From positions 1 through 39,274 of IMG/VR virus record IMGVR_UViG_3300045988_104228: a stretch of 39,274 nucleotides of DNA, one strand, 5' to 3'. Shown here piece after piece: positions 1-39,155 of the stretch. Each line of letters begins with the position of its first letter. The first letter of the stretch is position 1. Origin of the DNA: a virus. The notes under the pieces are model-generated. The model did no database searches and was not told the DNA's origin. It saw only the letters and a list, made by a program, of their open reading frames with translations. A program made the translations under genes and the position numbers.

Positions 1-10
1 ATAACATTAC

Positions 11-40
11 AGTCCTTGAAACTCAATGTTTTCAAGGACT
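11..40. repeat. 11-8-11 inverted repeat AGTCCTTGAAA/ctcaatgt/TTTCAAGGACT; candidate attP core or hairpin (second copy 39166-39195 lies inside the DTR)
   Basis: Perfect 11-bp arms around an 8-bp spacer, about 80 bp from the int stop codon; geometry resembles tyrosine-recombinase core sites. Confidence 0.4.
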
Positions 41-81
41 GTGTTAATTTTAAGGCGGTCTAAAACAGGTTATTTTCGGCT

Positions 82-114
82 CTACAACTAACACACAACT
101 AACACACAACTAAC
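82..114. repeat. Three tandem copies of the 11-bp unit ACACAACTAAC (first copy partial), abutting the int stop codon; candidate arm-type sites
   Basis: ctACAACTAAC ACACAACTAAC ACACAACTAAC read directly; related pair at 39084-39105. Confidence 0.45.
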
Positions 115-118
115 AAAA

Positions 119-778
119 TCAAATTAAATTTGCTTCGCGCAACAGCGTTTGAATTTCCACGTGCGTATAAACTTTCTCGGTCAAATTCATTATCGATTTG
201 TGACCGACTATTTTTTTGAGAATCGTCTGATTTGCATTTGCGGCAACCATGAGCGATATAAAAGTGTGCCTGGTCTCGTGTGGCGTGTGCTCCATGTTGA
301 GCTCGCGCATTAGCGGTTTCCAATAAATTTTTTGAAAATTGTCATAACTGATATGCTCGCCGTTTACCGTGCAGACGGCATATGGACAGTTTGAGCTTGC
401 CATAAATTGCCGCCAAAAGGGCAGAACCTTGTCCGCAATCGGCACTATTCTGATTCCGGCTTTCGTCTTTGATTTCCGAACTTTAAACCACTGCTCGTCA
501 AGGTTAACATCTTCTTTTTTCAAATCTAAAAGCTCGGAAATTCTTACGCCGGAGTAAATCAGCATTAAAATCAGTGGCACATATTTGTTTTTATTGACCT
601 GTGCCCACAGCTTTTCAATTTCCTCTGTCGTAAATGCCGTTCGGGTTTTTGACTCGGTATCATTTGTAACGCTCAACTGGTCGGCATAATTTTTTTTGAT
701 AGCATCGTGCTGTACGCACCAACGGTACAGCTGATTAAACAGGTATTCTGATTCGCTTTTGCATTTGATATCCTGCAC
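119..778 (-). CDS. int: Tyrosine integrase, C-terminal catalytic part (gene interrupted by a frameshift)
   Basis: Catalytic-domain signatures LMLIYSGVRISELLDL (Arg), HETRHTFIS (H-x-x-R), GHKSIMNLTEKVYTHV (His...Tyr). Confidence 0.85.
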   Translation of the reverse strand: MQDIKCKSESEYLFNQLYRWCVQHDAIKKNYADQLSVTNDTESKTRTAFTTEEIEKLWAQVNKNKYVPLILMLIYSGVRISELLDLKKEDVNLDEQWFKVRKSKTKAGIRIVPIADKVLPFWRQFMASSNCPYAVCTVNGEHISYDNFQKIYWKPLMRELNMEHTPHETRHTFISLMVAANANQTILKKIVGHKSIMNLTEKVYTHVEIQTLLREANLI

Positions 779-1154
779 CGCAGTTGTCTATAATATCCTG
801 CATATGCTGCGGGCGTATATCCGCCATTTTCATATCATACAACGGCTCGCAGTGCTTGTATGCCGCGCTGTAATTTCGCGTTGTCGAGCGGTTTGAGTCA
901 TCATCAAATGTATCATCCCACCAACGCTTATATATGTCGGCAAAAGTGACTTTTGACATCTGCAAGTCATACGGATTGTCATTAAATGCCGCGAGGGCTT
1001 GCAGCGCTTCCGCTTTTGTGCGGTAGTATCCGATTGTGGCATATAATTGTTTACCGTTATCATCCCAGCCTATTGTACGCCGCGCAATGTACGGCTTGCG
1101 CCTATTTTTGCCCGATAGCTTGTATACAGAACCGTATCCGTTTGGTAATCGCAT
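735..1154 (-). CDS. int: Tyrosine integrase, N-terminal part (arm-binding and core-binding region); frame ends at TAA 735-737
   Basis: MRLPNGYGSVYKLSGKNRRKPYIARRT... is typical of a phage integrase N-terminus; SD AAAGGAG lies upstream of ATG 1154; overlaps the catalytic-part ORF in another frame. Confidence 0.8.
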   Translation of the reverse strand: MRLPNGYGSVYKLSGKNRRKPYIARRTIGWDDNGKQLYATIGYYRTKAEALQALAAFNDNPYDLQMSKVTFADIYKRWWDDTFDDDSNRSTTRNYSAAYKHCEPLYDMKMADIRPQHMQDIIDNCGAGYQMQKRIRIPV

Positions 1155-1287
1155 AAAAATACCGCTCCTTTGCTTGCATTTAATAGGAGCGGATGATATA
1201 ATGAAGTATATCAATCCACTCTTTTTGCCAAGTTGTGTGTTGCTTCTCTGAGCCCTCGGTGTTCCCGTACCGGGGGTTCTTTTTTAT

Positions 1288-1752
1288 TTAGCTTAAATCT
1301 TTTATCGCGCTCGAAACATCATCGACAAGGTCGAGTCCGACCTGCGTCTTGCCCGTTACTTTGCCGTCGATAAACACGACAGTCGCGCCATAAGTCACGC
1401 CGCCCATATCCTTACTTGACCAAGCGTAGGATTGAGAAGTGCTTTCGCCAATCTGGGAAGACGTAACAAGTTTACCCTCACAGCCGATGATTTTACAGAC
1501 TTGCTCATAGGTCATGCCGTTTTTAATCTTGTTAAACTCGTCGAGCGTAATGTATTCGGTTTCGGGTTCTGTCGTTGTCGGTGTGTCTGTGCCGCCATCT
1601 CCGCTTATCGCTATTGCGGCGATGAGAACGAACAGAAGAACAAATACCACGAGAACAATCTTCCAGCCTTTTGACATCTTTGCTCTTGCACCGCAGTTTG
1701 GGCAAAACTTTTCTTTCTTGCCGAGCTCTGTTCCGCATTTCTTACACTTCAT
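1288..1752 (-). CDS. Membrane-anchored protein: N-terminal zinc-ribbon (CxxC...CxxC), one TM helix, extracellular DUF3862/BLIP-like domain
   Basis: MKCKKCGTEL..FCPNCG, then WKIVLVVFVLLFVLIAAIAI, then a soluble domain; SD AAAGGA upstream. Confidence 0.7.
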   Translation of the reverse strand: MKCKKCGTELGKKEKFCPNCGARAKMSKGWKIVLVVFVLLFVLIAAIAISGDGGTDTPTTTEPETEYITLDEFNKIKNGMTYEQVCKIIGCEGKLVTSSQIGESTSQSYAWSSKDMGGVTYGATVVFIDGKVTGKTQVGLDLVDDVSSAIKDLS

Positions 1753-1770
1753 TTTAATACATCCTTTCTA

Positions 1771-1986
1771 TTATCTGACCGCGCTCAGAAAAGCAACTGC
1801 CTTTCCGAGTATACGGACTTCATTCATCTCTTCTTTAGAGTATATCATATCATCGTAAAGTGGGTTCTCGGGTCTGAGAACGACTTTTGAAGGATATTTG
1901 TAAACTCTTTTTAATGTTGCTTCTTCGCCAATCAGAACGGCAGCTATCTCTCCATCTTCTACATCGGGCTGTTCTCGTATGTATAC
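1771..1986 (-). pseudogene. Orphan C-terminal half of an S24 (LexA/CI-type) peptidase domain, with no start codon
   Basis: Translates to VYIREQPDVEDGEIAAVLIGEEATLKRVYKYPSKVVLRPENPLYDDMIYSKEEMNEVRILGKAVAFLSAVR*; contains the TLKR catalytic-Lys motif; an in-frame stop lies just upstream and there is no ATG/GTG/TTG. Confidence 0.8.
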
Positions 1987-2038
1987 GACATGCAGTTGTT
2001 TTATTTATTTTCGTATGTTATAATTCCGTTGTAGGCTT

Positions 2039-2185
2039 TCAGGAGTGGTAACACAAACTTTCAAAAACTCTCACCATAGCGAGCGTTATGTCCGCTAAAT
2101 CTTCAAGCCTACACTCTTTCGACTTCTGGGCGAGTAGTTGCAGCTGCTCGTTCAGAAGTTTCTCTGCGGTCTCAAACTTTTTCAT
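2039..2185 (-). CDS. Small hypothetical protein (48 aa) downstream of the cro-like gene
   Basis: ATG preceded by AAGGAG at 8 nt; MKKFETAEKLLNEQLQLLAQKSKECRLEDLADITLAMVRVFESLCYHS. Confidence 0.5.
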   Translation of the reverse strand: MKKFETAEKLLNEQLQLLAQKSKECRLEDLADITLAMVRVFESLCYHS

Positions 2186-2242
2186 TTTTTCATCTCCTTT
2201 CCATGTTTAACCTCAGTTTCCATTTTGTGTCTTTTATGACAC

Positions 2243-2446
2243 TTACGCGGCAAAAAAAATAGCAATTATCTGGTCATTGTCAAGGTTAAGCACCGAACAA
2301 ATCTTCTTGATTTCTGACTGCTTAAAGTCGCTTTTTCCTGTGAGCTTATTTGACATAGCTTTTTCGCCTATACCAATAGATTCCGCCAATTTGGCGGCTG
2401 TATATCCACGCTTGACCATCTCGCCTCTGAGTTCCATTTCGTTCAT
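2243..2446 (-). CDS. XRE-family HTH protein, Cro-like (67 aa)
   Basis: MNEMELRGEMVKRGYTAAKLAESIGIGEKAMSNKLTGK... HTH; SD AAGGAGGTG lies 6 nt upstream of ATG 2446 (the ORF-track GTG at 2455 is less likely). Confidence 0.8.
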   Translation of the reverse strand: MNEMELRGEMVKRGYTAAKLAESIGIGEKAMSNKLTGKSDFKQSEIKKICSVLNLDNDQIIAIFFAA

Positions 2447-2471
2447 TGCCTGCACCTCCTTTCATTGTTTC

Positions 2472-2576
2472 GTGCCTTTTAGGACACCTTTATATTATCA
2501 CTCGTTTTGCCGACTGCCAACCCCTAAAAGACACTTTTCAAGATTTTTTTGAAAATTAGTGTTGCTTTTTAGAAAC
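2472..2576. promoter_or_regulatory. Three operator-like copies of TG(C/T)CTTTTAG(G/A) in the divergent promoter region (2472-2487, 2523-2534 inverted, 2563-2576)
   Basis: gtgccttttaggacac; cctaaaagacac (reverse complement gtgtcttttagg); tgctttttagaaac; two copies overlap the -35/-10 elements. Confidence 0.45.
2492..2520 (-). promoter_or_regulatory. Sigma70-type promoter reading leftward (TTGGCA-17-TAATAT)
   Basis: Reverse complement reads TTGGCAgtcggcaaaacgagtgaTAATAT upstream of the cro-like gene. Confidence 0.55.
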
Positions 2577-2590
2577 AGTTATGGTATTAT
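2562..2590 (+). promoter_or_regulatory. Sigma70-type promoter reading rightward (TTGCTT-17-TATTAT)
   Basis: ttgctttttagaaacagttatggtattat, 25 nt upstream of ATG 2615. Confidence 0.55.
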
Positions 2591-2614
2591 TTGATACGAA
2601 AGGAGAGACCATAA

Positions 2615-3796
2615 ATGAATATAGGAGATATAATGCGCACTCGACGTCAAGAACTTGGCTTGACTCTTGAAGAAGTAGGAGATTATGTCGGCGTAGGTAA
2701 AAGCACCGTTAGAAAGTGGGAAAATGGAGATATCGAGAACATGAAGCGAGATAAAATTGCGCTTCTCAGCAAAATTCTCAAGTTAAGCCCTTTGACATTT
2801 ATAACTGGAGAAGTCGAATATGGCACTCCTGACAACATCATCCCTCTCCCAAAAATGAAAAAGATTCCACTACTCGGGACAATAGCTTGTGGAGAACCTA
2901 TTCTGGCGGCTGAAAATATCGAAGCTCTTATCAATGCAGACGAAAATCTCAACGCAGATTTCGCGCTCCGCTGCAAGGGTGACAGTATGATAAATGCCCG
3001 TATATTTGACGGTGATATCGTGAGCTACACAATGAACAACATATCAACCTTTAACAACCCTGCATTCGGCAGTGTGAGAGCTGTCAGTGTGAACGACAAA
3101 CCGTATTTTGTCGGCAGAGATGTCGCCGAGATACTCGGATATAGTAATCCGCGAAAAGCAATCGGCGACCATGTAGACGATGAAGATAAAACCGATGGGG
3201 TAACGATTCGTGACTCCATCGGTAGGGAGCAAAAACCCATAATCATCAACGAGTCAGGTCTTTACAGCCTTATCCTCTCAAGCAAACTCCCAAAAGCCAA
3301 AGAGTTCAAGCGCTGGGTAACGGCGGAAGTGCTTCCGGCAATCCGCAAAACAGGCGGCTATGTCAACGACACGGCACAGTTCGTCGAGAGCTATTTCGGA
3401 CAGCTCGAACCGAATCAGAAACACGCGCTGACGATGATGTTTGACGAGAGCAAAAGAATGAGCGCACAGCTCAAGGAGCAAGCCCCGAAAGTTCTCTTCG
3501 CGAACGCGGTAGAGACGGCACATAACTCGATTCTTATCGGCGACCTTGCGAAAATCATAAGGCAGAACGGCGTTGACATCGGTCAGAAGAGACTTTTCGA
3601 GTGGTTGCGTCAGAACGGATATCTCATCAAAGACGGTCAGAGCAAGAACATGCCGACTCAGAAAGCGATGGAAATGAGTCTCTTCGAGGTCAAAGAAAGC
3701 ACGATAAACAACCCTGACGGCTCGGTGAGAGTTACCCGAACGACAAAGGTCACAGGCAAAGGTCAGACCTATTTTGTCAAGAAATTCTTGTCGTGA
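2615..3796 (+). CDS. Chimeric ORF: XRE HTH plus the N-terminal half of an S24 peptidase (CI/LexA-like, aa 1-136) fused in frame to a BRO-N/KilAC antirepressor
   Basis: HTH LGLTLEEVGDYVGVGKSTVRKWENG; S24 part IPLLGTIACGEPI...CKGDSMINARIFDGDIV; then SYT-MNNISTFNNPAFGSVRAVSVNDKPYFVGRDVAEILGY (BRO-N) and APKVLFANAVETAHNSILIGDLAKII (KilAC/ANT); SD AAAGGAGAG. Confidence 0.85.
   Translation: MNIGDIMRTRRQELGLTLEEVGDYVGVGKSTVRKWENGDIENMKRDKIALLSKILKLSPLTFITGEVEYGTPDNIIPLPKMKKIPLLGTIACGEPILAAENIEALINADENLNADFALRCKGDSMINARIFDGDIVSYTMNNISTFNNPAFGSVRAVSVNDKPYFVGRDVAEILGYSNPRKAIGDHVDDEDKTDGVTIRDSIGREQKPIIINESGLYSLILSSKLPKAKEFKRWVTAEVLPAIRKTGGYVNDTAQFVESYFGQLEPNQKHALTMMFDESKRMSAQLKEQAPKVLFANAVETAHNSILIGDLAKIIRQNGVDIGQKRLFEWLRQNGYLIKDGQSKNMPTQKAMEMSLFEVKESTINNPDGSVRVTRTTKVTGKGQTYFVKKFLS
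3032..3796 (+). CDS. Antirepressor (BRO-N + KilAC domains) as a stand-alone reading frame nested in the chimeric ORF
   Basis: ATG 3032 begins MNNISTFNNPAFG..., the usual N-terminus of BRO-family proteins. Confidence 0.6.
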   Translation: MNNISTFNNPAFGSVRAVSVNDKPYFVGRDVAEILGYSNPRKAIGDHVDDEDKTDGVTIRDSIGREQKPIIINESGLYSLILSSKLPKAKEFKRWVTAEVLPAIRKTGGYVNDTAQFVESYFGQLEPNQKHALTMMFDESKRMSAQLKEQAPKVLFANAVETAHNSILIGDLAKIIRQNGVDIGQKRLFEWLRQNGYLIKDGQSKNMPTQKAMEMSLFEVKESTINNPDGSVRVTRTTKVTGKGQTYFVKKFLS

Positions 3797-3811
3797 AAGG
3801 AGACGAATATC

Positions 3812-4015
3812 ATGCGCAAAATCACAGTAAAAGAAGCGGCGCAAATACTCGGCATGAGCGAGATGTTTGTACGAATAGGTTTACAGCGCGGCAAACTGCC
3901 GATAGGTACGGCGATAAAGCTCAACGGCAACCGCTATACCTATTACATCAACCCAAAACAGCTCGCGGAGTATAGCGGCGCAGAACTGACAAAAGCTGAA
4001 AAGATACACATGTAA
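3812..4015 (+). CDS. Small HTH DNA-binding protein, excisionase (Xis)-like
   Basis: MRKITVKEAAQILGMSEMFVRIGLQRGKLPIG... MerR/Xis-type HTH; position follows the antirepressor. Confidence 0.55.
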   Translation: MRKITVKEAAQILGMSEMFVRIGLQRGKLPIGTAIKLNGNRYTYYINPKQLAEYSGAELTKAEKIHM

Positions 4016-4028
4016 AGGAGGCGGAGCA

Positions 4029-4196
4029 ATGAGGGCGGCTTTGATAGTGTCGATTGTGCTTTTATCGTTAAATGCACTGCTAAATCTTATTACGGCTATA
4101 CACTCGTTGATAACCGATGATGACGAGGGATGTTGGTGTGTGCCAAACTTTTTAGCATCCGTCGCCATGATTATTGTACTCACGCAGCAGCTTTAA
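4029..4196 (+). CDS. Small membrane protein (55 aa)
   Basis: SD AAGGAGG lies 8 nt upstream; two hydrophobic segments (MRAALIVSIVLLSLNALLNLI... ASVAMIIVL). Confidence 0.5.
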   Translation: MRAALIVSIVLLSLNALLNLITAIHSLITDDDEGCWCVPNFLASVAMIIVLTQQL

Positions 4197-4213
4197 GAGA
4201 GGGAGGTATAGCT

Positions 4214-4384
4214 ATGATACTGAAATTTGCAATTCAAACAGTCTTTGAATTTGTCGCGGTCGTACTTATCATCTATGGATTTATTCACGAGGACAAGCTG
4301 ATAGCTTTTGAAGATTCACTCAAGCGCAGAATCAAAAAGAAAGGAGCTGAACGCCATGTACGAGACAACGGCAATCGCTCCTGA
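4214..4384 (+). CDS. Small membrane protein (56 aa)
   Basis: SD GGGAGG upstream; MILKFAIQTVFEFVAVVLIIYGFI followed by a basic tail. Confidence 0.5.
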   Translation: MILKFAIQTVFEFVAVVLIIYGFIHEDKLIAFEDSLKRRIKKKGAERHVRDNGNRS

Positions 4385-4886
4385 AGCATTCAAGATAGCG
4401 GATAGACTTACGCTGTTAATGGAAGAGCACGAACCGCCTGTGACGAGGTTGGAACTGGCAAACGCTGTGGGTTGCCACAAGGACACTATTTCGCGATATT
4501 GCGACGGCACAAATTCCGTGTCGTTCATCTTCGCGATTCGGATTGCTCGATTTTTCAATGTCTCGCTTGATTATCTCGTGGGACTGACAGATAGCAAGGA
4601 GATACCGCAGTGGCAAAAGCCCGGAAAACATAAACACTCAGAGCATTGGCACTTGAAAAACATCTGCAAACGCTGTTATTACCGCCGTGAAATGGTCGGG
4701 CTTGCAGGGATAAGCGGATTTGATATCGAGTACGACAACAAAGCTTGTCACTACACACTCGACACAGGCAAGTTCCGCGAGATAGAGGCGACGGACATGG
4801 AGTGCCCGTATTTTCGCCCCAAAAGAAGAGAAAGGAAAGTTGTTTCCCCGGCATGGGACAAGATGAAAAGCGATGAAAACATATGA
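4356..4886 (+). CDS. XRE-family HTH protein with a Cys/His-rich C-terminal region
   Basis: RLELANAVGCHKDTISRYCDGTNSVSFIFAIRIARFFNVSLDYLVGL HTH; SD AAAGGAG before ATG 4356. Confidence 0.7.
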   Translation: MYETTAIAPEAFKIADRLTLLMEEHEPPVTRLELANAVGCHKDTISRYCDGTNSVSFIFAIRIARFFNVSLDYLVGLTDSKEIPQWQKPGKHKHSEHWHLKNICKRCYYRREMVGLAGISGFDIEYDNKACHYTLDTGKFREIEATDMECPYFRPKRRERKVVSPAWDKMKSDENI

Positions 4887-7377
4887 CCAATTTTTAGATG
4901 ACAAGATAGAAGTCGCCAAAGAGAGCGGGTTCGAGATATCGCTCGACGAAATTAACCCGGCACTCAAACCTCACCAGAAGCTCGCCGTTCAATGGGCGGT
5001 CAGAGGCGGCAGGCGCGGACTGTTCGAGCGGTTTGGACTCGGCAAGACCGTGCAGGAACTCGAATTTTGCCGTATAGTCACCGAGCATGAGGGCGGTCAG
5101 GCTCTTATAGTGCTTCCGCTCGGCGTGCGTCAAGAGTTCACCCGTGACGCAAGAGAGCTGTTGCATATCCCCGAGCCCGTATATGTCACCTGCATGGACG
5201 AGGTAAGAGCTTCAGATGCACAAATCCTCATGACCAACTACGAGCGAGTCAGAGACGGAGACATAGACCCCAAATATTTCACGGCGGTCAGCCTTGACGA
5301 GGCGGCGGTACTTCGCTCTTATGGCTCAAAAACCTATCAAACTTTTTTTCCGAAGTTCAAGGGAATTAAATATAAGCTTGTGGCGACCGCCACGCCGAGC
5401 CCGAACAGATATAAAGAGCTTATCCATTACGCAGGGTTTCTCGACCTTATGGACACGGGGCAGGCACTTACACGCTTTTTCAAACGCGATTCTACAAAAG
5501 CTAACAACCTGCAGCTCTATCCGAGTATGGAGCGTGAATTTTGGCTCTGGGTTGCGTCGTGGGGGCTGTTCCTAAGCTCGCCCGCCGACCTTGGACTCGA
5601 TGCGACGGGCTACGATTTACCGCCGTTTGAAGTCCGTACCCATGTCATAGACGACGACATGGAAAACTTGCCCGCCGACCGTGACGGACAGTTCAAGCTG
5701 TTGAGAGATACCGCGACATCGTTATCTGAGGCGGCACGGGAAAAAAGCTCAAGTATATTGGCGCGAGTAGCGAAAGCAAAAGAGCTGATAGACGAAGCAA
5801 GCCCCGACGAGCATTTTATTCTGTGGCATGACCTCGAAGCTGAACGTCATGCGATTAAAAAGGCTATTCCTGAAGCTGTCGACATTTACGGCAGTATGGA
5901 CTATGACGAACGCGAACGCCGCGTTATTGACTTCCAAGAGGGCAAAACAAGGATATTCGCCACAAAGAAGAGCCTTTCCGGCTGCGGGTGCAATTTTCAG
6001 AAATATTGCCACCGTGCGATATTCGTCGGTATTGACTATGAGTTCAACGACTTTATTCAGGCAATTCACAGAATACACCGCTTCTTGCAGACCGAAAAGG
6101 TGATTATCGACATAATCTATACCCAAGCGGAAGAAGAAATCTGGGAAGCACTCCGTGAGAAGTGGAAACGGCACGACGAATTAGCACAGAAGATGTCCGA
6201 AATCATCAAAAAATACGGCTTGTCATCTCCGCATATCGCCGAGCAGCTGAAAAGAAGTAAAGGAGTCAAAAGAGTGGAAATCAAAAGAGAAAGGTTCACA
6301 GCCGTGAATAACGACTGCGTTGACGAGACACGAAAAATGCCCTCTGATAGCGTCGGATTGATTCACACGTCAATCCCATTCTCCAATCATTACGAATATA
6401 CCCCGTCATATAACGACTTCGGCCACAACGCGACAACAGCCCAGTTTTTCAAACAAATGGACTATTTGACCCCTGAACTGCTTCGCGTGTTACAGCCCGG
6501 CAGAGTCTGCGCGGTTCATGTTAAAGACCGCGTTCTCTTCGGCAATGTGACGGGCACGGGCTTTCCGACTGTTGAACCGTTCCACGCGATGTGCATAAGC
6601 CACTACCAAAAGCACGGCTTTCAGTATTTCGGCATGATAACCATCTGCACCGATGTTGTCCGCGAGAACAATCAAACTTACCGTCTCGGCTGGACGGAAC
6701 AGTGCAAAGACGGCACGAAGATGGGCGTCGGCTGTCCTGAATATATCTTGCTTTTCCGAAAACTTCCGAGCGATACAACGGACGGATATGCAGATGTCCC
6801 CGTCACCAAAAGCAAAGACGACTATACCCGCGCCCAGTGGCAGATTGACGCGAACGGTTATCAGCGGTCAAGCGGGAACCGACTTGTCACCCGCGAGGAA
6901 CTCAAAGACGCGCCCGTTCGAGTGCTCGAGAGAATGTATCGTCAATATTCCCGCGAAACGGTCTACGACTACGCCGACCACGTAAAACTCGCCAAAGAAC
7001 TCGATGAAAAGGGACATCTTCCCGCCACTTTCGCAGTGGTCTCGCCCGGCAGCTGGAGCGACGAGATATGGGACGATATCAACCGTATGCGCACACTCAA
7101 CACAACGCAGAGCAGACGCCGTCAGAATCTTCATGTATGCCCGTTGCAGCTCGATATCGTGGAGCGGGTAATAAACAGATATTCCAACAAAAACGACCTT
7201 GTATATGACCCGTTCGGCGGTCTTATGACCGTTCCGTATATGGCAGTTAAAATGGGGCGCAGGGGCTACGGTTGCGAACTTAACCCTGACTATTTCCGCG
7301 ATGGCGTGGGCTATCTCGAAGCGGCAGAAGCACAGATAGGCGCACCGACGCTATTTGACTTAATGGAGGGAGCTTAA
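4873..7377 (+). CDS. SNF2/DEAD-like helicase fused to an N6/N4-type DNA methyltransferase (834 aa)
   Basis: Helicase motifs FGLGKTVQ, SLDEAAVLRS, ATATPSPN and a helicase-C region; methylase motifs HTSIPFSNHY ((D/S)PP(Y/F)-like) and DPFGGLMTVPYMAVKMGRRGYGCELNPDYF (AdoMet motif I). Confidence 0.8.
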   Translation: MKTYDQFLDDKIEVAKESGFEISLDEINPALKPHQKLAVQWAVRGGRRGLFERFGLGKTVQELEFCRIVTEHEGGQALIVLPLGVRQEFTRDARELLHIPEPVYVTCMDEVRASDAQILMTNYERVRDGDIDPKYFTAVSLDEAAVLRSYGSKTYQTFFPKFKGIKYKLVATATPSPNRYKELIHYAGFLDLMDTGQALTRFFKRDSTKANNLQLYPSMEREFWLWVASWGLFLSSPADLGLDATGYDLPPFEVRTHVIDDDMENLPADRDGQFKLLRDTATSLSEAAREKSSSILARVAKAKELIDEASPDEHFILWHDLEAERHAIKKAIPEAVDIYGSMDYDERERRVIDFQEGKTRIFATKKSLSGCGCNFQKYCHRAIFVGIDYEFNDFIQAIHRIHRFLQTEKVIIDIIYTQAEEEIWEALREKWKRHDELAQKMSEIIKKYGLSSPHIAEQLKRSKGVKRVEIKRERFTAVNNDCVDETRKMPSDSVGLIHTSIPFSNHYEYTPSYNDFGHNATTAQFFKQMDYLTPELLRVLQPGRVCAVHVKDRVLFGNVTGTGFPTVEPFHAMCISHYQKHGFQYFGMITICTDVVRENNQTYRLGWTEQCKDGTKMGVGCPEYILLFRKLPSDTTDGYADVPVTKSKDDYTRAQWQIDANGYQRSSGNRLVTREELKDAPVRVLERMYRQYSRETVYDYADHVKLAKELDEKGHLPATFAVVSPGSWSDEIWDDINRMRTLNTTQSRRRQNLHVCPLQLDIVERVINRYSNKNDLVYDPFGGLMTVPYMAVKMGRRGYGCELNPDYFRDGVGYLEAAEAQIGAPTLFDLMEGA

Positions 7378-7673
7378 TGGCACTAACTCTTGGCAGTTTA
7401 TTCGACGGCATAGGTGGATTTCCGTTAGCGGCTGAACTTGCGGGTATCAAACCTGTGTGGGCGGCAGAAATTGACCCGTTTTGTGTCGCTGTGACAAAAA
7501 AACGCTTCCCGGAAATGGAACATTTAGGAAGTGTCACCGAAATAGACGGGACAAAAATAAAGCCCGTCGACATAATCACGTTCGGCTCACCGTGTCAAGA
7601 TTTAAGCACTGCCGGAAAGCGGGCGGGCTTAGCGGGAGAACGTAGCGGTTTTTTTTGGAAGCCGTTAGAATAA
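7377..7673 (+). CDS. dcm: DNA (cytosine-5)-methyltransferase, N-terminal part (motifs I and IV); reading frame lost in a T8 run
   Basis: LFDGIGGFPLA (motif I), ITFGSPCQDLSTAGKR (motif IV); ends ...ERSGFFWKPLE* instead of the expected ...RSGxFxEAVRII. Confidence 0.85.
   Translation: MALTLGSLFDGIGGFPLAAELAGIKPVWAAEIDPFCVAVTKKRFPEMEHLGSVTEIDGTKIKPVDIITFGSPCQDLSTAGKRAGLAGERSGFFWKPLE
7649..7656 (+). repeat. T8 homopolymer at the dcm frame break
   Basis: ggTTTTTTTTgg read directly; upstream frame 0 and downstream frame -1 both carry Dcm motifs. Confidence 0.95.
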
Positions 7674-8713
7674 TTTACGAAATGAGGTCGGCAACTAATG
7701 GAGAATACCCAACTTTCATTCTTTGGGAAAATGTTCCCGGAGCATTCAGCAGTAATCAACGGCGTGACTTTAGAACCGTGCTCGAAGAGCTCACAAAAAC
7801 CGATATTCCAATGCCTGGAAGTGGGCGGTGGGCGACCGCCGGAGTGGTTCGAGGGGGGGAGCTTTGCGTCGCATGGCGACAGCTTGATGCTCAGTATTGG
7901 GGAGTTCCCCAGCGCAGAAAGCGCATCTACCTTGTCGGAAGTTTTGGAAGTAATCGCGCCGAAAAAATATTATTTGAGCGCGACGGCGTGCGCAGGTATC
8001 TTACGAAGAACAGAGAATCGTGGCAAAGAGCTACCCCCGATGTTGAAAGCAGCGTTAATGTCTGTTGTTGCGATGCAAGAGGCAACGGCGGAAAAGGAAT
8101 AGCTCCCACGATGACGGGCGACCATAACGGACATATCAGCGATTATACCGCAATATTGACGTATAATATCTGTTCTTTAAGTTCAACCTCGATGAAGTCG
8201 GATAATCTGCACAGCGGCGCCTACGAAACGGAAACCGCACGGACGCTTGATAGTAACGGCGGTAATCCCTTTTGTAACCAGGTCGGTATTGTTGTATGTG
8301 CTTCTGACCGAACTTCGTTCAATCAAGGCAAAAACGCTTGTTCCGATTTTGACATAAACGATAGCGACATAAATTCGACGCTTGTTGCAAAGAGTTCGTC
8401 GGCGGTTGCTTACAGCAGCGTTCTCCGGCGGCTTACACCGCTCGAGTGTGAGCGTTTGCAAGGATATCCCGATTATTGGACGACATTACCCAAAATAGAC
8501 AAAATGACAGATGATGAGGTCGAATTTTACAAAGCAGTATATTTGACCGACAAAAAAATCAGAGGAAAAACAGCAAAAACACCCTCTAAAGCCGCGCTTA
8601 TTAGCTGGTACAACAAACTCGACAACGACGGCAACAGATACAGAGCGTTAGGAAACAGCCTCGCGATACCGTGTGCCTTGAGAGTTATAGAGGGAATCGC
8701 GAAAGGAGTTTAA
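7655..8713 (+). CDS. dcm: DNA (cytosine-5)-methyltransferase, C-terminal part (motifs VI, VIII, TRD, IX, X); first in-frame ATG at 7682
   Basis: EAVRIIYEMR, ILWENVPGAFSS (VI), YWGVPQRRKRIYLV (VIII), RRLTPLECERLQGYPDYWT (IX), YRALGNSLAIPC (X). Confidence 0.85.
   Translation: MEAVRIIYEMRSATNGEYPTFILWENVPGAFSSNQRRDFRTVLEELTKTDIPMPGSGRWATAGVVRGGELCVAWRQLDAQYWGVPQRRKRIYLVGSFGSNRAEKILFERDGVRRYLTKNRESWQRATPDVESSVNVCCCDARGNGGKGIAPTMTGDHNGHISDYTAILTYNICSLSSTSMKSDNLHSGAYETETARTLDSNGGNPFCNQVGIVVCASDRTSFNQGKNACSDFDINDSDINSTLVAKSSSAVAYSSVLRRLTPLECERLQGYPDYWTTLPKIDKMTDDEVEFYKAVYLTDKKIRGKTAKTPSKAALISWYNKLDNDGNRYRALGNSLAIPCALRVIEGIAKGV
7698..8102 (+). CDS. Candidate overlapping gene (134 aa), +1 frame relative to the dcm C-terminal part
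   Basis: ATG preceded by GAGGT at about 9 nt; translation is not low-complexity (…SIGEFPSAESASTLSEVLEVIAPKKYYLSATACAGILRRTENRGKELPPMLKAAL…); no independent evidence. Confidence 0.25.
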   Translation: MENTQLSFFGKMFPEHSAVINGVTLEPCSKSSQKPIFQCLEVGGGRPPEWFEGGSFASHGDSLMLSIGEFPSAESASTLSEVLEVIAPKKYYLSATACAGILRRTENRGKELPPMLKAALMSVVAMQEATAEKE

Positions 8714-8715
8714 AA

Positions 8716-9768
8716 ATGAAACTGACCTGTAATACATACGACCTCAAGGCAGCTTGTGCCAAAGCTGCAAGAGTCATTGACAAATCGCCGTCTCCGGCTA
8801 CAAACGGACTCTTGCTCAAGGCAGAAAGTGGAGTCCTGACCGTGACGGGATATAATCTCACGATTGGAATATCCGTCAAAATCCCCGCGATGATAGAGAT
8901 TCCCGGAGCGATAATCGCCGACGCGAAGATTCTGACAAATGCAGCGGGCAAGCTTCAAAAGTTTGAGACGGCACTATCAACGGATGAAGATGTTCTCACC
9001 GTCCAGAACGGACGCTCGAATCTCAAGGTCAAAGGCATACCTGCGGAGCAATACCCCGAGCTTCCAACTCCCGAAGATGGCACAACTTGCCGAGTTGACG
9101 GAGCGAATCTCGTCAAGCTGATTAAAAAAACCGTGTTCGCCGCCGCAGATGATAAGGGCGTGAGAATGACCGTCTCCGACAACCTCAGACTCTGCGCGAC
9201 TGACGGGTTCACACTCGCTGAGTCAAGCATACCGTGCGAAGAGGGGACAGCACCGGGCGCAACGGTAACAATTCCGCCAAAGGCACTGCTCGAGCTTTCG
9301 GACGCGACCGACGCGGTCGAGATATCCGTCTCAAGCAAACATTTTATAGCGCAGACCCGCGATTATACGCTGTTTTCGCGCCTTATGTCTACCGCGTGGG
9401 GAATCGATGTGGACAAGATTATTCCCAAAAACACAGCTTCGGTCAAGACGGATTTTAAAGCCCTCACATCTGCGCTCGAAAGAGTTCAGATTCTCGCGAG
9501 CACCGAGACACAGCCTGTTAAGATGTCGCTCTCAAGAGATGCCATTGAACTATCTGTGAGGACGACGATAGGCAGTGCCACCGATTCAGTGATGGGCGAG
9601 ACCGATTCAGACCTCGTGATAGGAATCAACGCGAGATATCTCGTCGGAGTGCTTAAAGCGGCTGAGACTGACAGCTTTCTTGTCAGCTCTCCCGTGTCTC
9701 CGTTGGTATTCAAGGACGACTCAAGCACCTATATTTTACTCCCGGTGCGACTGAGGGAAAGAATATGA
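8716..9768 (+). CDS. dnaN: DNA polymerase III beta sliding-clamp homolog (351 aa)
   Basis: Length and three-domain layout; LLLKAESGVLTVTGYNL, LCATDGFTLAE, INARYLVGVLKA and C-terminal YILLPVRL are typical of DnaN; SD GAAAGGAG. Confidence 0.75.
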   Translation: MKLTCNTYDLKAACAKAARVIDKSPSPATNGLLLKAESGVLTVTGYNLTIGISVKIPAMIEIPGAIIADAKILTNAAGKLQKFETALSTDEDVLTVQNGRSNLKVKGIPAEQYPELPTPEDGTTCRVDGANLVKLIKKTVFAAADDKGVRMTVSDNLRLCATDGFTLAESSIPCEEGTAPGATVTIPPKALLELSDATDAVEISVSSKHFIAQTRDYTLFSRLMSTAWGIDVDKIIPKNTASVKTDFKALTSALERVQILASTETQPVKMSLSRDAIELSVRTTIGSATDSVMGETDSDLVIGINARYLVGVLKAAETDSFLVSSPVSPLVFKDDSSTYILLPVRLRERI

Positions 9769-9899
9769 GATACAACGACGCAGACCAAACACCGCCCGTT
9801 CAGACAACGGCGGCACAGGACGAACAAATAAAACAAATGACAGCAACCGATTGTATCAACTACCTATTTCAAATAATGAAGGGAGAAACAAAAAGATGA
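9765..9899 (+). CDS. Small hypothetical ORF (44 aa)
   Basis: ATG overlaps the dnaN stop (ATGA) and the ORF fills the gap to the next gene; no recognisable domain. Confidence 0.3.
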   Translation: MRYNDADQTPPVQTTAAQDEQIKQMTATDCINYLFQIMKGETKR

Positions 9900-10384
9900 A
9901 GCTCTATGAACTCGACAACGAATACCTCGATTTTATCGCAGCTGTCGAAGATGGGACAATCCCGGAGGACGCTATCGAAGATACCCTTGAAATGCTCAAC
10001 GGCGACTACAAAGACAAGCTGGACAACACCGTTTGTGCTATCAAGAATTTGACCGCCGAAGCTAAGATGATAGACGAAGAGATAAAAGCTCTGACGGCGA
10101 GAAAAAAAGCAAAAGAAAACTCCGTCGACTATCTTAAAAGCTGCGTGTCTCGCTCTATGCAGTGCAGAGGTGAAACCTCTTTCGAGAGCGCGAGAAACAA
10201 AGTCGCTTTTCGCAAGTCTGAACGTCTCGTAATCGCAGATGAAGCCGCATTTGTGGAAAAATATCCGGAGTTTGTCACATTTACCCCGAAAATCAGCAAG
10301 ACCGATGTCAAAACGGCGGTCAAGTCCGGCGAATCGTTTGACGGCGCGGACATTGTGGAAGTCCAGAACATTCAGATTAAGTGA
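9896..10384 (+). CDS. Siphovirus Gp157-family protein
   Basis: MKLYELDNEYLDFIAAVEDG...IEDTLEMLNGDYKDKLDNTVCAIKNL is typical of Gp157; lies upstream of a recombinase as usual. Confidence 0.65.
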   Translation: MKLYELDNEYLDFIAAVEDGTIPEDAIEDTLEMLNGDYKDKLDNTVCAIKNLTAEAKMIDEEIKALTARKKAKENSVDYLKSCVSRSMQCRGETSFESARNKVAFRKSERLVIADEAAFVEKYPEFVTFTPKISKTDVKTAVKSGESFDGADIVEVQNIQIK

Positions 10385-10392
10385 GGTGCAAC

Positions 10393-11070
10393 ATGGATAA
10401 TCTTGAAATTTACAGTAGGGTTTGCGAAGTGCCCGGCAACGCACAGAAGACAATCGCGGCGGGTCGTCTCAAGGGATTCACAGACATTAACCCGATGTGG
10501 CGCATTAAGAAGCTGACCGAGGTATTCGGGGCTTGCGGCATCGGCTGGTACACAGACAATATCATGGAGTGGCTTGAGGACGGAGCAGACGGAACAAAGA
10601 CGGCGCACGTCAGCCTTAATCTTTATGTCCGCATAGACGGCGAGTGGAGCAAGCCTATTTTTGGCATCGGCGGCGCGTCATACATATCCAAAGAGCGGAG
10701 CGGAACTTATACATCGGATGAGTGCTTTAAAATGGCATATACCGACGCGCTTTCCGTCGCTTGTAAGGCATTAGGTTTTGGCGCAAATGTCTATTGGGCG
10801 GCAGGAAGAAGCAAATACAGCTCTCAGAACACCCAGTCGACACCCGCAGACGAAAAGATAAACCGTGAAGCCGTAAATCTTGCCACGCGCGACCTAATGG
10901 GCGAGTTTGCGAAGCTCAGAGGGAAAAGTATAGGCGAAGTAGAAAACGCGCTCATGCGCCAAATTTCAGCCCCTGAGGGCATGTCTCTTGAAACTATATC
11001 AGACAGTTTGGCAGAAAGGGCAAAAACTCAGATAGCCGTCTGGCTTAAAGCGGCAAAGGAGCAGTCATGA
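10393..11070 (+). CDS. Single-strand annealing protein, Rad52/Sak-like
   Basis: FTDINPMWRIKKLTEVFGACGIGW and AYTDALSVACKALGFGANVYW resemble Rad52-type annealases; SD GAGGTG. Confidence 0.55.
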   Translation: MDNLEIYSRVCEVPGNAQKTIAAGRLKGFTDINPMWRIKKLTEVFGACGIGWYTDNIMEWLEDGADGTKTAHVSLNLYVRIDGEWSKPIFGIGGASYISKERSGTYTSDECFKMAYTDALSVACKALGFGANVYWAAGRSKYSSQNTQSTPADEKINREAVNLATRDLMGEFAKLRGKSIGEVENALMRQISAPEGMSLETISDSLAERAKTQIAVWLKAAKEQS

Positions 11071-11621: not shown

Positions 11622-11892
11622 CATTATACAGGCAGAACATAATTGCTTTTTGTGTGGACGCGCTGATTGGCTGGAAAAGCACCACATCTTCGGCGCGTCC
11701 AATAGAAAAAACAGCGAAAAATACGGCTTAACCGTGTATCTGTGCCACTGGTGCCACAACGAGCCGCCGGACGGTGTACACCACAACGCGGACAACCGTC
11801 ACCGCCTACAGGAATTGGCACAAAAAAAGTTTGAGGAGGTCTATCCTGACCTTGATTTTATAAAGATTTTCGGGAGGAATTACAAATGGTAA
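11614..11892 (+). CDS. Zinc-binding HNH-like protein
   Basis: CFLCGR...LEKHHIFG...LCHWCHN: CxxC/HH/CxxCH arrangement. Confidence 0.45.
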   Translation: MNSIIQAEHNCFLCGRADWLEKHHIFGASNRKNSEKYGLTVYLCHWCHNEPPDGVHHNADNRHRLQELAQKKFEEVYPDLDFIKIFGRNYKW

Positions 11893-12092
11893 GACAGAAT
11901 TGCTTTGCCTATGGCTCAGCAACGGAAAACGGCTGCAAGGCGTTGATAAAGCGCGAGTGCGACAAATGCAAGTTTTACAAGACGGCAAACGACGACGAAA
12001 TCGAAAAACTTAACTGCGAGCTCAGAATCCGCCGCATATATCAGATGTCGTCGAAAGATTTTTTAAATAACAGGAGGTCAAACAATGATTAA
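11886..12092 (+). CDS. Small Cys-rich hypothetical protein
   Basis: ORF tightly packed between neighbouring genes; no recognised domain. Confidence 0.45.
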   Translation: MVRQNCFAYGSATENGCKALIKRECDKCKFYKTANDDEIEKLNCELRIRRIYQMSSKDFLNNRRSNND

Positions 12093-12462
12093 CAGCGTAA
12101 TCCTCATGGGTAGGTTGACCGCCGACCCCGAACTCAGACAGACTCAGAACGGCACAGCGGTAACATCGTTCACTGTAGCCGTCGACCGCAGATTCCAGCG
12201 CGGACAGACCGACTTTATCAACGTTGTCGCATGGAAGCAGACCGCCGAGTTTGTCGAAAAGTATTTCAAAAAAGGTGCAATGATAGCGCTTCGCGGCAGT
12301 ATTCAGCAGCGCAACTATGAGGACAAAAACGGCAACAAGCGCACCGCATTTGAAGTTATTGCCGACGAAGTTAGCTTCTGCGGGTCAAAGGCGGACAAGC
12401 CGCAGACCCCGAACAACGACGACTTCGAGGAAATACCCATAAGCGACGACTTGCCGTTCTGA
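12085..12462 (+). CDS. ssb: Single-stranded DNA-binding protein
   Basis: MINSVILMGRLTADPELRQTQNGTAVTSFTVAVDR OB-fold start; acidic tail ending DDLPF; SD AGGAGG. Confidence 0.95.
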   Translation: MINSVILMGRLTADPELRQTQNGTAVTSFTVAVDRRFQRGQTDFINVVAWKQTAEFVEKYFKKGAMIALRGSIQQRNYEDKNGNKRTAFEVIADEVSFCGSKADKPQTPNNDDFEEIPISDDLPF

Positions 12463-12471
12463 GGTAGCGAG

Positions 12472-12801
12472 ATGAACATAGTCGACTTTATACCCAAAGG
12501 CAAGGAAAACGCGGTCACGCGGGAAGCACTTTGCATTTATACGGGGCTCGACGACCGAACCGTTCGCAAGCTGATAGAGCTTGCAAGGGACGGCGGAGCA
12601 CCTATTCTTTCATCGTCGCATAGCGTCGGATATTGGCTTTCCGACGACATCGTCGAGATTAAAGCTTTCCTCAATGAGACTGACCGCCGTTGCAGAAGCT
12701 TGTCACGCAGAGCACAAGGGCTCAGACGCTATGTAGCGGAGCGCGAGGGAAAATATGTCGTTCCCGTACAAGCCCATTTCAGGACGATAAAAAGGAGCTG
12801 A
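12472..12801 (+). CDS. Hypothetical winged-helix-like protein
   Basis: SD GAGGT; sits upstream of the replisome organizer. Confidence 0.5.
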   Translation: MNIVDFIPKGKENAVTREALCIYTGLDDRTVRKLIELARDGGAPILSSSHSVGYWLSDDIVEIKAFLNETDRRCRSLSRRAQGLRRYVAEREGKYVVPVQAHFRTIKRS

Positions 12802-12805
12802 GACA

Positions 12806-13588
12806 ATGGAGCTCAAATGGATAAAACTCTGCGTTAATATCTTCGACGATGAAAAAATATCGCTCATCGAGAGTATGCCCGACGCTGATTCCATAATTGT
12901 TATATGGTTCAAAATCCTCTGTCTCGCGGGCAAGCAGAACAACTGCGGCGTGCTTATGCTTAGTGACCGCATACCATACACCGAGGAAATGCTTGCAACT
13001 ATCTTTCGCCGTCCTATATCTACCGTGCGTCTCGCTCTTACCACCTTTGAAAGCTTCGGAATGATAGAGGTTGTGAACGGCACAATAACTATCCCGAATT
13101 GGGAGAAGCACCAAAGTGTCGATAAGTTAGCCGAACTCAAGGAGTACAACCGACTCGCACAACAAAAATCCCGCGCAAAAAAGCGTGCCTTGCAGGCTGT
13201 CAATGACATGTCAATGACATGTCAACGAAGTCAAGGCATAGAAGAAGATACAGATAAAGATATAGAAGAAGATATAAAAGAAATAGATAAAGAAAAACCC
13301 ACGCGCCACAAATACGGTGAATATCAAAATGTTCTTCTGTCTGACGAAGACATTGAAAAACTGAAAAAAGAGTTTTTTGACTGGTCTGACAGAATCGAAC
13401 GCCTGAGCGCGTATATGGCAAGCACTGGCAAAAGTTATAAAAACCACCTTGCCACTATCAGAAACTGGGCGCGGCGTGATAGCAGGACTCCGACCGCAGA
13501 TGTCAAACCAAAAGGACAAGCTTCATATGACATCTCGGAGTTTGAGCGTCAGAACATGTCAAAGCCGATAGCCTACAAGAAAAAATAA
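12806..13588 (+). CDS. Phage replisome organizer (N-terminal domain family)
   Basis: WIKLCVNIFDDEKISLIESMPDADSIIVIWFKILCLAGKQNNCGVLML...IPNWEKHQ is characteristic of this family. Confidence 0.85.
   Translation: MELKWIKLCVNIFDDEKISLIESMPDADSIIVIWFKILCLAGKQNNCGVLMLSDRIPYTEEMLATIFRRPISTVRLALTTFESFGMIEVVNGTITIPNWEKHQSVDKLAELKEYNRLAQQKSRAKKRALQAVNDMSMTCQRSQGIEEDTDKDIEEDIKEIDKEKPTRHKYGEYQNVLLSDEDIEKLKKEFFDWSDRIERLSAYMASTGKSYKNHLATIRNWARRDSRTPTADVKPKGQASYDISEFERQNMSKPIAYKKK
13199..13300 (+). repeat. Iteron-like tandem repeat (GTCAATGACAT x2.5) followed by a purine-rich repetitive tract inside the replisome organizer gene; candidate origin
   Basis: gtcaatgacatgtcaatgacatgtcaacg, then gaagaagatacagataaagatatagaagaagatataaaagaaatagataaagaaaaa. 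Confidence 0.35.
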
Positions 13589-13628
13589 TGCAGTGCCCGG
13601 GCGAAAGTCCGGGCAGAAAGGAAAAATT

Positions 13629-14012
13629 ATGGATTGCAGTAAAACAATAGACTTCTTTGCCGAAGCAAAAAGGCTTTGCGATTCACGCACCGGGTGCACA
13701 GCTGATGTGGCTAACAAAGAGCAATGCCCGCTGTTTGCTTTTTGCAAGCACCCCGGTATAACAAGGGGCGCCGAATATGCCAAAAAGTTAATTGAAAATC
13801 TACAAAAGTGGAGCAATGAACACCCGAAGAAAACATACGCACAAGACTTCTTTGAAAAATTCCCGAAAGCGCGGAGAAACTCGGATGGAACCCCGTTTGT
13901 ATGCAGAGAAAGAATCTACGGCGGAGAGTGTCCAGTGTTAGAATGCGATGAATGTTGGAACAAGGATTGTTGGAACGAGCCTATGAACGATGAAGAAACA
14001 AAAGGAGCTTAA
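13629..14012 (+). CDS. Cys-rich hypothetical protein
   Basis: SD GAAAGGA before ATG 13629; no recognised domain. Confidence 0.55.
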   Translation: MDCSKTIDFFAEAKRLCDSRTGCTADVANKEQCPLFAFCKHPGITRGAEYAKKLIENLQKWSNEHPKKTYAQDFFEKFPKARRNSDGTPFVCRERIYGGECPVLECDECWNKDCWNEPMNDEETKGA

Positions 14013-14016
14013 CAAA

Positions 14017-14427: not shown

Positions 14428-14429
14428 AA

Positions 14430-39105: not shown

Positions 39106-39155
39106 AAAACAAGTCCGAAAGCCTTATTTTTCAAGGAATTAGTGTTATCCGCACC

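Follow-up and report, generated by a model that had tools for sequence, protein, structure and literature searches.

The IMG/VR virus record IMGVR_UViG_3300045988_104228 was analysed over its whole length of 39,274 nucleotides (nt), hereafter the window, whose positions are used for all coordinates; it assembles as a circular phage genome of about 39.2 kb. The subject of this work is its immunity region, where the gene of a CI/LexA-like repressor (cI) lies in two pieces on opposite strands, one outside and one within an inverted segment, and where the piece encoding the DNA-binding half of the repressor is joined in frame to the gene of an antirepressor (ant).

A split repressor and a repressor-antirepressor chimera

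The open reading frame (ORF) at positions 2615-3796 of the plus strand encodes a chimera of 393 amino acids (aa), composed of residues 1-136 of CI, the three residues SYT and a complete Ant of 254 aa. Pfam profiles locate HTH_3 at its residues 8-59, as in the rejoined repressor described below, and positions 1-57 of the 116 of Peptidase_S24 at residues 85-138; the CI part comprises the helix-turn-helix (HTH), the linker and the N-terminal half of the S24 domain, including the cleavage site and the catalytic Ser. In the C-terminal part, Bro-N occupies residues 154-241 (E 3e-29) and ANT/KilAC residues 284-392 (E 9e-35). This part starts at the antirepressor's own Met (position 3032), and residues 140-393 of the chimera correspond to the 254-aa Ant that relatives encode as a separate protein. 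The 120 best homologues found with the chimera are all stand-alone Ant proteins, of 232-259 aa, mostly 252-258 aa; the available homologues are more than 86% identical. In 21 of 134 Ant homologues the N-terminus is called from an upstream in-frame ATG and reads MERSYTMNN..., the leader corresponding to positions 3023-3031; the SYT linker is therefore the natural leader of ant, which is open in frame.

The 3' half of cI is found as an orphan at positions 1771-1988 of the minus strand. It ends with a stop codon at 1771-1773, has no start codon, and its minus-strand translation runs into another stop seven codons upstream. The translation of 1771-1986 matches positions 55-116 of the 116 of Peptidase_S24 (E 3e-12, Pfam) and carries the catalytic Lys in TLKR; the region is collinear with positions 10401-12390 of L004, one of the prophages described in the next section. 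When the two halves are rejoined, the resulting CI of 206 aa covers Peptidase_S24 from 1 to 116 of 116 (92 bits) and is 100% identical to a protein, P0001, which is present on at least 119 contigs of up to 858 kb; more than 100 further CI variants are 96-100% identical to the rejoined protein. In an alignment with Escherichia coli LexA, the fused half holds the cleavage site (IAC-GEP versus VAA-GEP) and the Ser (GDSM versus GMSM), the orphan half holds the Lys (TLKR versus TVKR), and the break is at DGDIV|YIRE. A complete S24 domain, with cleavage site, Ser and Lys in one polypeptide, exists in the rejoined CI and in P0001 and is absent from the window. Judged from the sequence, cI is destroyed: it can no longer give a protein in which Ser and Lys are united, or one with the C-terminal half, where LexA has its dimer interface.

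A model working from the letters of the window (the original prediction) had described this ORF as an HTH with the first S24 half followed by a complete BRO-N/KilAC antirepressor, and all of its coordinates hold; the agreement is well beyond what chance would give. The profile search that it had proposed for the opposite-strand fragment at 1771-1986, which it regarded as a second S24 half without start codon, gives the match reported above; its assignment of the Ser to GDSM and of the Lys to TLKR agrees with the LexA alignment, and its normal repressor of about 206 aa is the protein P0001. Finally, the in-frame fusion through SYT at the antirepressor's own Met is confirmed by the exact chimeric protein on four contigs, which are the window (JGI/IMG, 39,274 bp) and three ENA contigs.

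The ancestral arrangement in integrated prophages

Ten integrated prophages (L004-L013) have a single gene order, ant (254 aa), 48-aa ORF and cro, followed by cI (206 aa) in the opposite direction, a 154-aa gene and int, and then by host genes. The integrase is an intact 344-aa protein like that of the window in seven of them and a different 393-aa protein in L005, L009 and L012. By blastn, positions 1-1991 and 3022 onward of the window are collinear with these canonical prophages, and positions 1989-3021 are inverted relative to both flanks, with 99.7-99.9% identity, in nine of the ten; for example, they match 9375-10407 of L004 in opposite orientation at 99.9% identity. The remaining prophage, L010, matches the same positions in two pieces around an insertion. 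The inverted segment proper, of 1029 bp (positions 1989-3017), contains the 48-aa ORF, cro, the 5' part of cI (two-thirds of the gene) and, between these two genes, the divergent promoters with the operators. The uninverted arrangement that the original prediction proposed to look for in relatives is thus that of the ten prophages.

In window orientation, the first canonical site is inside cI and reads ...CTCGTATGTAT-ACGA-TATCACCGTC...; it is intact in all ten prophages. The second, between the 48-aa ORF and ant, reads ...AACTGCATG-AAAG-GAGCTACACAATG..., and its core CATG-AAAG-GAGC is exact in eight prophages; L010 keeps AAAG-GAGC with one upstream base different, and L009 has a divergent ant without a match to site 2.

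The prophage of L010 (ERZ27229663, a 504-kb contig) is 96-97% identical to the window, and two regions of the contig, 1-2810 and 8768-9558, stand out. Its insertion measures 577 bp, carries a gene with a KTSC domain and lies between duplicated copies of the region of the 48-aa ORF. The first 2556 bp of this contig equal positions 11875-14430 of the window at 99.9% in opposite orientation, which may be either an inversion of the replication module or an assembly chimera.

The ancestor is best explained as a temperate siphovirus whose host belonged to the gut Clostridia (Oscillospiraceae/Ruminococcus-like). Relatives of CI in GTDB representative genomes are all at 67% identity or less, and the host was resolved to the level of Clostridia/Oscillospiraceae metagenome-assembled genomes. 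The nearest cultured repressors are those of Staphylococcus phages 47, LH1 and phi2958PVL, at 42% identity. An order with int, a membrane protein and cI facing cro and ant is typical of Firmicutes siphoviruses, and the ancestral module resembles it.

Anatomy of the junctions

The left junction of the window reads ...GTAT-ACGA-CATGCAGTT... (GTAT ACGA CATGCAG) and the right junction ...GACGGTGATA-TCGT-GAGCTACAC... (GGTGATA TCGT GAGCTAC). Base-level comparison with the canonical sites shows that the ACGA block of the left junction (positions 1985-1988, with the break at 1988|1989) has a second, inverted copy at positions 3018-3021; this is the TCGT block of the right junction, and there it replaces the AAAG of the ant Shine-Dalgarno sequence AAAGGAG. 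The break sites have zero bases in common at either junction, that is, no microhomology. The exchange was non-conservative: 4 bp of cI, ACGA, were duplicated in inverted orientation and 4 bp, AAAG, were lost. As net length is unchanged, CI(1-136)-SYT-Ant stays in frame; as AAAG is lost and ACGA duplicated, re-inversion cannot restore the ancestor. The claim of the original prediction that re-inverting the segment restores the canonical layout consequently stands for the gene order but not for the sequence, since TCGT has taken the place of AAAG at the junction of the 48-aa ORF and ant. Its remark that the two break points of the window share only 4 bp was accurate, no longer inverted repeat being found there.

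A further contig, L119 (SRR2198968), is identical to positions 2985-5310 of the window except for the 4-bp block, which is AAAG (GGTGATA-AAAG-GAGCTAC). This junction is still in frame (...FDGD-KRSYT-MNN...) and keeps the ribosome-binding site of ant. Neither homologous recombination nor template switching between the other forms can give rise to it. The strand-exchange points are 4 bp apart, the right junction having TCGT in six contigs and AAAG in L119, and the latter is the second segregant exactly as predicted by a reciprocal exchange with 4-bp staggered breaks at both sites. In the mechanism that we propose, both sites (DIV|YIR of cI and the ribosome-binding site of ant) would have been cut with a 4-bp stagger and reciprocally exchanged, with inversion of the segment; replication would then have resolved the 4-bp heteroduplex into one daughter with ACGA/TCGT, as in the window, and another with CTTT/AAAG, of the L119 type.

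Tyrosine recombinases cut with a stagger of 6-8 bp and serine recombinases with one of 2 bp, and 4 bp fits neither. The phage integrase, considered as agent of this inversion, was rejected because of the stagger and of a site 2 without att-like arms. The 4-bp stagger suggests instead the subunit exchange of a type II topoisomerase of the gyrase type, or an equivalent staggered break followed by end joining. That gyrase mediates homology-independent illegitimate recombination through exchange of its subunits has long-standing status as a proposal (Ikeda model; PMC11164529), and the signature proposed for such events is a stagger of 4 bp at sites lacking homology (PMC11164529). On the whole, we consider it quite probable that a single illegitimate, non-programmed reciprocal inversion turned a temperate phage into a lysogeny-defective derivative.

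The inversion in several assemblies

A census of junctions was carried out on all fetched loci, namely the window and the L-numbered contigs; sequences that represent the junctions of the several forms are given here (Ja, GACGGTGATATCGTATACATACGAG; Jb, GACGGTGATATCGTGAGCTACAC; Jb2, GACGGTGATAAAAGGAGCTACAC; Jc, CGTATGTATACGACATGCAGTTG; Jc2, CGTATGTATCTTTCATGCAGTTG; Jd, CTGCATGAAAGGAGCTACAC; Jd2, CTGCATGTCGTGAGCTACAC; Je, GTAATGTTATTTTTTGAAAATTAG; Jf, TTAGTGTTATCAAAAAAATCTTG). The right junction with TCGT is present in six contigs: the window, L001 (MEGAHIT k119), L002 (SRR2199641, k127), L003 (SPAdes), L109 (SPAdes) and L113 (SRR2198974, k127). The left junction is present in the window, L001 and L003, and L003 covers both junctions at 100% identity.

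These data bear on the possibility, listed in the original prediction, that the inversion is a chimera of assembly or library preparation and exists in no real DNA molecule. Two clean break points without repeats are what such an artefact could leave, and in the same cohort there are contigs, L109 and L110 (with its cycle of 2460 bp), that look like mixtures made in the assembly graph. We give this explanation hardly any weight and reject it, because one identical homology-free junction recurs on six contigs across three assembler settings (MEGAHIT k119, MEGAHIT k127 and SPAdes) and several sequencing runs. Random chimeric reads would not recreate one junction; k-mers of 119-127 across a homology-free junction are not derivable from canonical sequence alone; and a single contig, L003, spans both ends of the inversion without a mismatch.

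As for the two mixed contigs, L110 (2515 bp, ERZ2661665) is a 2460-bp cycle of the SPAdes graph running from the cI promoter through intact cI, the 154-aa gene, the frameshifted int and the junction of a second inversion (form C, see below) back to the cI promoter. L109 (2570 bp, ERZ2662072) joins intact-cI, form-C and fusion junctions through overlaps of 55 nt. In both, canonical and form-C genomes were probably mixed in the assembly graph; a less likely alternative is a minicircle or a tandem duplication.

All contigs that can be traced to a BioProject belong to PRJNA217052 (FijiCOMP cohort), and the sample name 'BRIT16' appears on L011 and L117; the six contigs with the fusion junction probably all derive from this one Fijian cohort. 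Megablast of positions 1-6000 against GenBank phages gave zero matches, and exact 24- and 30-mers of the junctions gave none in IMG/VR, where this phage is barely represented; in the JGI metagenome collection, where it is equally scarce, the inverted junction had 0 matches and the canonical junction 6. The absence of the inverted junction from IMG/VR and JGI is weak evidence, because these collections barely contain the phage.

One lineage with a decaying lysogeny module

The integrase gene of the window (positions 119-1214, minus strand) is a pseudogene of the tyrosine recombinase family in two overlapping frames, 735-1214 and 119-778, with Phage_int_SAM_3 and Phage_integrase (Pfam). It is split by one additional G at position 742 (AACAGGTATT; L004 and L011, whose 344-aa int is intact, have AACAGTATT), which leaves an N-terminal ORF of 139/159 aa and a catalytic ORF of 219 aa. 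The same frameshift is found in 12 contigs, uninverted ones included. Since L107, L110 and L111 carry it together with an intact cI, the int frameshift predates the inversion; L107 and L111, which are uninverted, have the attP junction, and L104 is the same phage with both int and cI intact. The C5 DNA methylase gene (positions 7377-8713) has a -1 frameshift at position 7649, where a C is missing before a run of seven T, in the window, L001 and L002. The canonical L011 differs from the window by only two substitutions over positions 3022-10500 and has an intact methylase of 445 aa. Rearranged contigs are 99.98-100% identical to the window, and canonical relatives 90-100%. On these identities, the rearranged genomes form one near-clonal lineage, and the cohort still contains its likely ancestor.

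The att core, TGTTATCCGCACC, lies at the circular junction (positions 39143-39155) and was delimited from attL in L004, attR in L106 and attP in L104 and L107. In the form with an additional G it reads TGTTATC-CGCACC-(G)ATAACA, with perfect inverted arms of 7 bp around a spacer of 6 bp. This indel of one G at the spacer edge is polymorphic: the G is present in L104, L107, L111, L112 and L114-116, and absent from the window, from attL of seven prophages (L004, L006-L008, L010, L011 and L013) and from contig L017.

The att core is also one of the break sites of a second inversion, form C, found in L001 and L113, which come from different assemblies. In form C the segment from 39150 to 2550 across the circular junction (39150-39155 plus 1-2550; L001 7380-9931), with the attP side, the frameshifted int, the 154-aa gene, the cI remnant, the 48-aa ORF and cro, is inverted again. 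The breaks in attP are at both edges of the 6-bp spacer CGCACC between the arms TGTTATC and GATAACA; the exchange removed the spacer and left an inverted second copy of five T from the T7 run at 2544-2550. In form C, no usable attP remains and the early genes all run in one direction with the former lysogeny genes, yet the genome still assembles as a 39-kb circle. This argues for replication of the lineage as a free phage and against an excised prophage. Position 1 of the window is the point at which the attP and form-C sequences merge, and it also coincides with the spacer edge that bears the G indel; this suggests a branch of the assembly graph and hints that both forms are present in the window's sample. 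The decay appears to have proceeded from the int frameshift to the inversion of cI and ant and, lastly, to the inversion that destroyed attP.

Two inversions in one lineage could also reflect recurrent, enzyme-targeted rearrangement, in which a deregulated recombinase, such as the catalytic fragment of the split integrase, repeatedly cuts preferred sites. Both rearrangements are confined to the lineage with the int frameshift, the second cuts attP at both spacer edges, where a tyrosine recombinase cuts, the right junction exists in two versions (TCGT and AAAG), and the 4-bp block stands at the centre of a partial palindrome, TGTATAC|GATATCA, at site 1 in cI. We find this improbable all the same: the stagger is that of neither recombinase family, the second break site of each event is unlike the att core, one heteroduplex event would yield exactly the pair of right junctions observed, and the rearranged contigs are all near-clonal.

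A fixed inversion versus a reversible switch

The original prediction had offered, as its first reading, a reversible inversion switch for the decision between lysis and lysogeny. In such a switch a recombinase would flip the immunity cassette between an intact cI (lysogenic) and the chimera with the early genes (lytic). Both wirings do occur in near-identical sequence backgrounds, and the identical inverted blocks ACGA/TCGT that exist after the event could in principle support conservative flipping. Against this, the states are not interconvertible at the level of sequence, AAAG being lost and ACGA duplicated, and a repeat search found no inverted repeat at 1988 or 3018 beyond the 4 bp made by the event itself. 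The sole site-specific recombinase found is the frameshifted tyrosine integrase; no resolvase or invertase domain appeared in the ORFs checked or in precomputed Pfam tables, not every small ORF having been scanned.

The distribution of the two states is also uneven: the inverted state is known from six contigs and one sister junction of a single near-clonal lineage with the int frameshift, although hundreds of contigs have the same cI and ant in the canonical state. Products of flipping back, Jd2 (CATG-TCGT-GAGC) and Ja2 (cI with AAAG), are absent from all fetched loci, and the corresponding CI variant, DGDKRY, is absent from 120 CI homologues. In an exact look-up in a collection of 15 billion proteins, neither the flip-back CI (DGDKRY) nor a full-length chimera of the AAAG type was found. 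Conversely, the fusion could have been an ordinary conserved gene, had many unrelated phages carried it; no other full-length HTH-S24N-Ant fusion was found among the top 120 homologues, and a 215-member cluster was covered in part. By every criterion tested, this is not a programmed inversion switch, and we hold such a switch to be very improbable. The non-conservative junctions, the lack of inverted repeats and of an invertase, the single near-clonal lineage and the missing flip-back products all speak for the other reading that had been offered, a fixed rearrangement that created a lysogeny-defective derivative.

Several points nevertheless weigh against a single fixed inversion with a lytic outcome. 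The left junction predicted for the second segregant (GTAT-CTTT-CATG) was not found in any fetched locus, and the 4-bp stagger is the sole basis for naming a topoisomerase. Intact-cI and fusion junctions occur together in one sample, ERZ2662072 (L109 and L121), as they would in a switching population. Support for the junctions comes from assembled contigs; furthermore, assemblies of the series ERZ266xxxx and ERZ2722xxxx and those of JGI may overlap PRJNA217052, so that the count of independent hosts is uncertain. The activity of the promoter on the cI side, the function of the chimera and the lytic life of the phage are predictions.

Promoter exchange and its probable consequences

The switch region (positions 2456-2614), recognised by a promoter scan and a repeat search, holds divergent promoters and operator-like repeats. 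The cro promoter, TTGGCA-17-TAATAT, runs from 2520 to 2492 on the minus strand in the scan, and a probable extended -10 promoter of cI, TGGTATTAT, was read by eye at 2583-2591 on the plus strand. In the window, the predicted cI-side promoter reads into the chimera and the early operon, and downstream of the predicted cro promoter there now follow cro, the 48-aa ORF, what is left of cI, the 154-aa gene and the frameshifted int.

A repressor inactivated in an otherwise complete phage genome is one mark of a virulent derivative. Here, terminase, portal, head, tape measure and lysis genes are present, structural and lysis genes are intact, and a comparison of the window's ends reveals a direct terminal repeat of 119 bp, positions 1-119 being equal to 39156-39274. 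The phage is probably lysogeny-defective, able neither to establish nor to maintain the prophage state, and would propagate lytically. In the window's form, Ant would be made only as the chimera, because its own ribosome-binding site is gone. Binding and inactivation of the cognate repressor is a feature of the antirepressor family, and is putative for this Ant.

The main alternative for the consequence shares the same origin and ends differently: the genome would be a defective dead end, kept by a co-resident intact helper prophage, and not an autonomous lytic phage. Three disruptive lesions (cI, int and the methylase) point in this direction, as do the presence in the same sample of a canonical phage that differs slightly (L121) and an early operon that now depends on the putative cI-side promoter. 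We regard helper dependence as unlikely, given the complete circle with intact structural and lysis genes, its presence in several runs and its further evolution into form C, whose 39-kb circle without a functional attP fits a replicating phage better than an excised prophage.

An adaptive value of the inversion is conceivable, and we put it forward as a tentative suggestion that is less likely than not to be correct. With the early genes on the predicted repressor-maintenance promoter, the phage may be able to grow on lysogens of its ancestor; homoimmunity would be escaped because the resident CI cannot silence the repressor-maintenance promoter without silencing its own synthesis. The CI-HTH::Ant chimera, made from that same promoter, may be targeted to the operators. 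Form C could, with the same low confidence, be a compensatory step that re-aligned the strong cro promoter with the early genes.

Relation to known systems

Clear-plaque and virulent derivatives that originate from lesions of the immunity region are well known, for example the cI and vir mutants of lambda, the spontaneous deletions in the lysogeny module of Streptococcus thermophilus phages of the Sfi21 type, and mycobacteriophage D29. As in these, the repressor gene is inactivated here in a genome that is otherwise complete, and the remaining lysogeny genes decay (int frameshift, loss of attP); unlike them, the lesion is an inversion and not a deletion or point mutation, it swaps promoters and creates an in-frame fusion of the CI N-terminal domain to Ant, and it is known from metagenomes and not from culture. 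Rearrangements that inactivate the repressor and so produce virulent phages are thus a known class, and the event is an unusual variant within it. Its unusual points are the promoter-swapping inversion, the in-frame fusion of a repressor N-terminal domain to an antirepressor, the recovery of both heteroduplex segregants and the follow-up inversion in attP. It is a clean natural case study and not a new kind of system.

Virulence through the immI region of P22 depends on constitutive antirepressor, as in mutants of the virA type. Expression of the antirepressor is likewise uncoupled from repressor control in the window, and this may bypass superinfection immunity; the difference is that Ant is here behind the repressor's promoter and fused to the repressor's DNA-binding domain, an arrangement known from sequence alone. 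The ancestral 206-aa protein shares with LexA and CI repressors of the S24 family (E. coli LexA, 7b5g/1jhh) the HTH, the C-G cleavage site and the Ser/Lys dyad; in contrast, the gene of the window is split, so that the two catalytic residues are separated and the dimer interface of the C-terminal part is complete in neither fragment. Programmed invertible segments (Hin/Gin/Cin/Min, FimB/E, invertons) resemble the present one in being promoter-bearing, about 1 kb long and found in two orientations that serve different downstream genes; here, however, inverted repeats and an invertase are missing, the exchange was non-conservative, and one of the orientations is confined to a single clonal lineage. 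The illegitimate recombination attributed to gyrase (Ikeda; PMC11164529) has homology-free, reciprocal junctions with exchange points 4 bp apart, as here, where both right-junction segregants were recovered; the classical cases, for which quinolones were often the inducers, are E. coli joints of the lambda-plasmid or lambda-bio kind, whereas the present one is an intramolecular inversion in a gut Clostridia phage, with an enzyme proposed from the stagger.

These features give the locus some general interest. An apparent transition from temperate to lytic life is caught stepwise in human gut metagenomes, and a natural example of homology-independent reciprocal recombination with both segregants, rarely seen outside in vitro gyrase systems, is available at base resolution. 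The promoter swap together with the repressor-HTH::antirepressor chimera is a testable design for immunity escape. For annotation, the 393-aa 'anti-repressor protein' with an HTH and half an S24 domain is to be taken as the product of a rearrangement and not as a new domain architecture, and circular 'complete' viral contigs can conceal mixed structural variants.

Operators and neighbouring genes

The other genes of the module are all on the minus strand of the window. The cro-like HTH gene (positions 2243-2446) encodes 67 aa, as in L003 and L004, and matches DUF739/HTH_26 (Pfam). The 48-aa ORF (2039-2185, from the ORF list), located between cro and ant in the canonical prophages L004-L013, has zero matches in PHROG. 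The 154-aa protein of the lysogeny module (1288-1752), with a zinc ribbon and DUF3862 (Pfam), is encoded between cI and int in all canonical prophages.

Three copies of the operator-like repeat GTGYCTTTTAGG (2472-2483, 2523-2534 and 2563-2572) lie between the divergent promoters and are carried inside the inverted segment. Two copies of an 18-nt motif, TTTTTGAAAATTAGTGTT, face in opposite directions at 2050-2067 (minus strand) and 2546-2563 (plus strand), 478 bp apart, where 0.07 would be expected by chance. Repeats and motif are likely operators, possibly including a distal operator for looping. Finally, a stretch similar to them, AATTAGTGTT, abuts the att core at positions 39136-39145.

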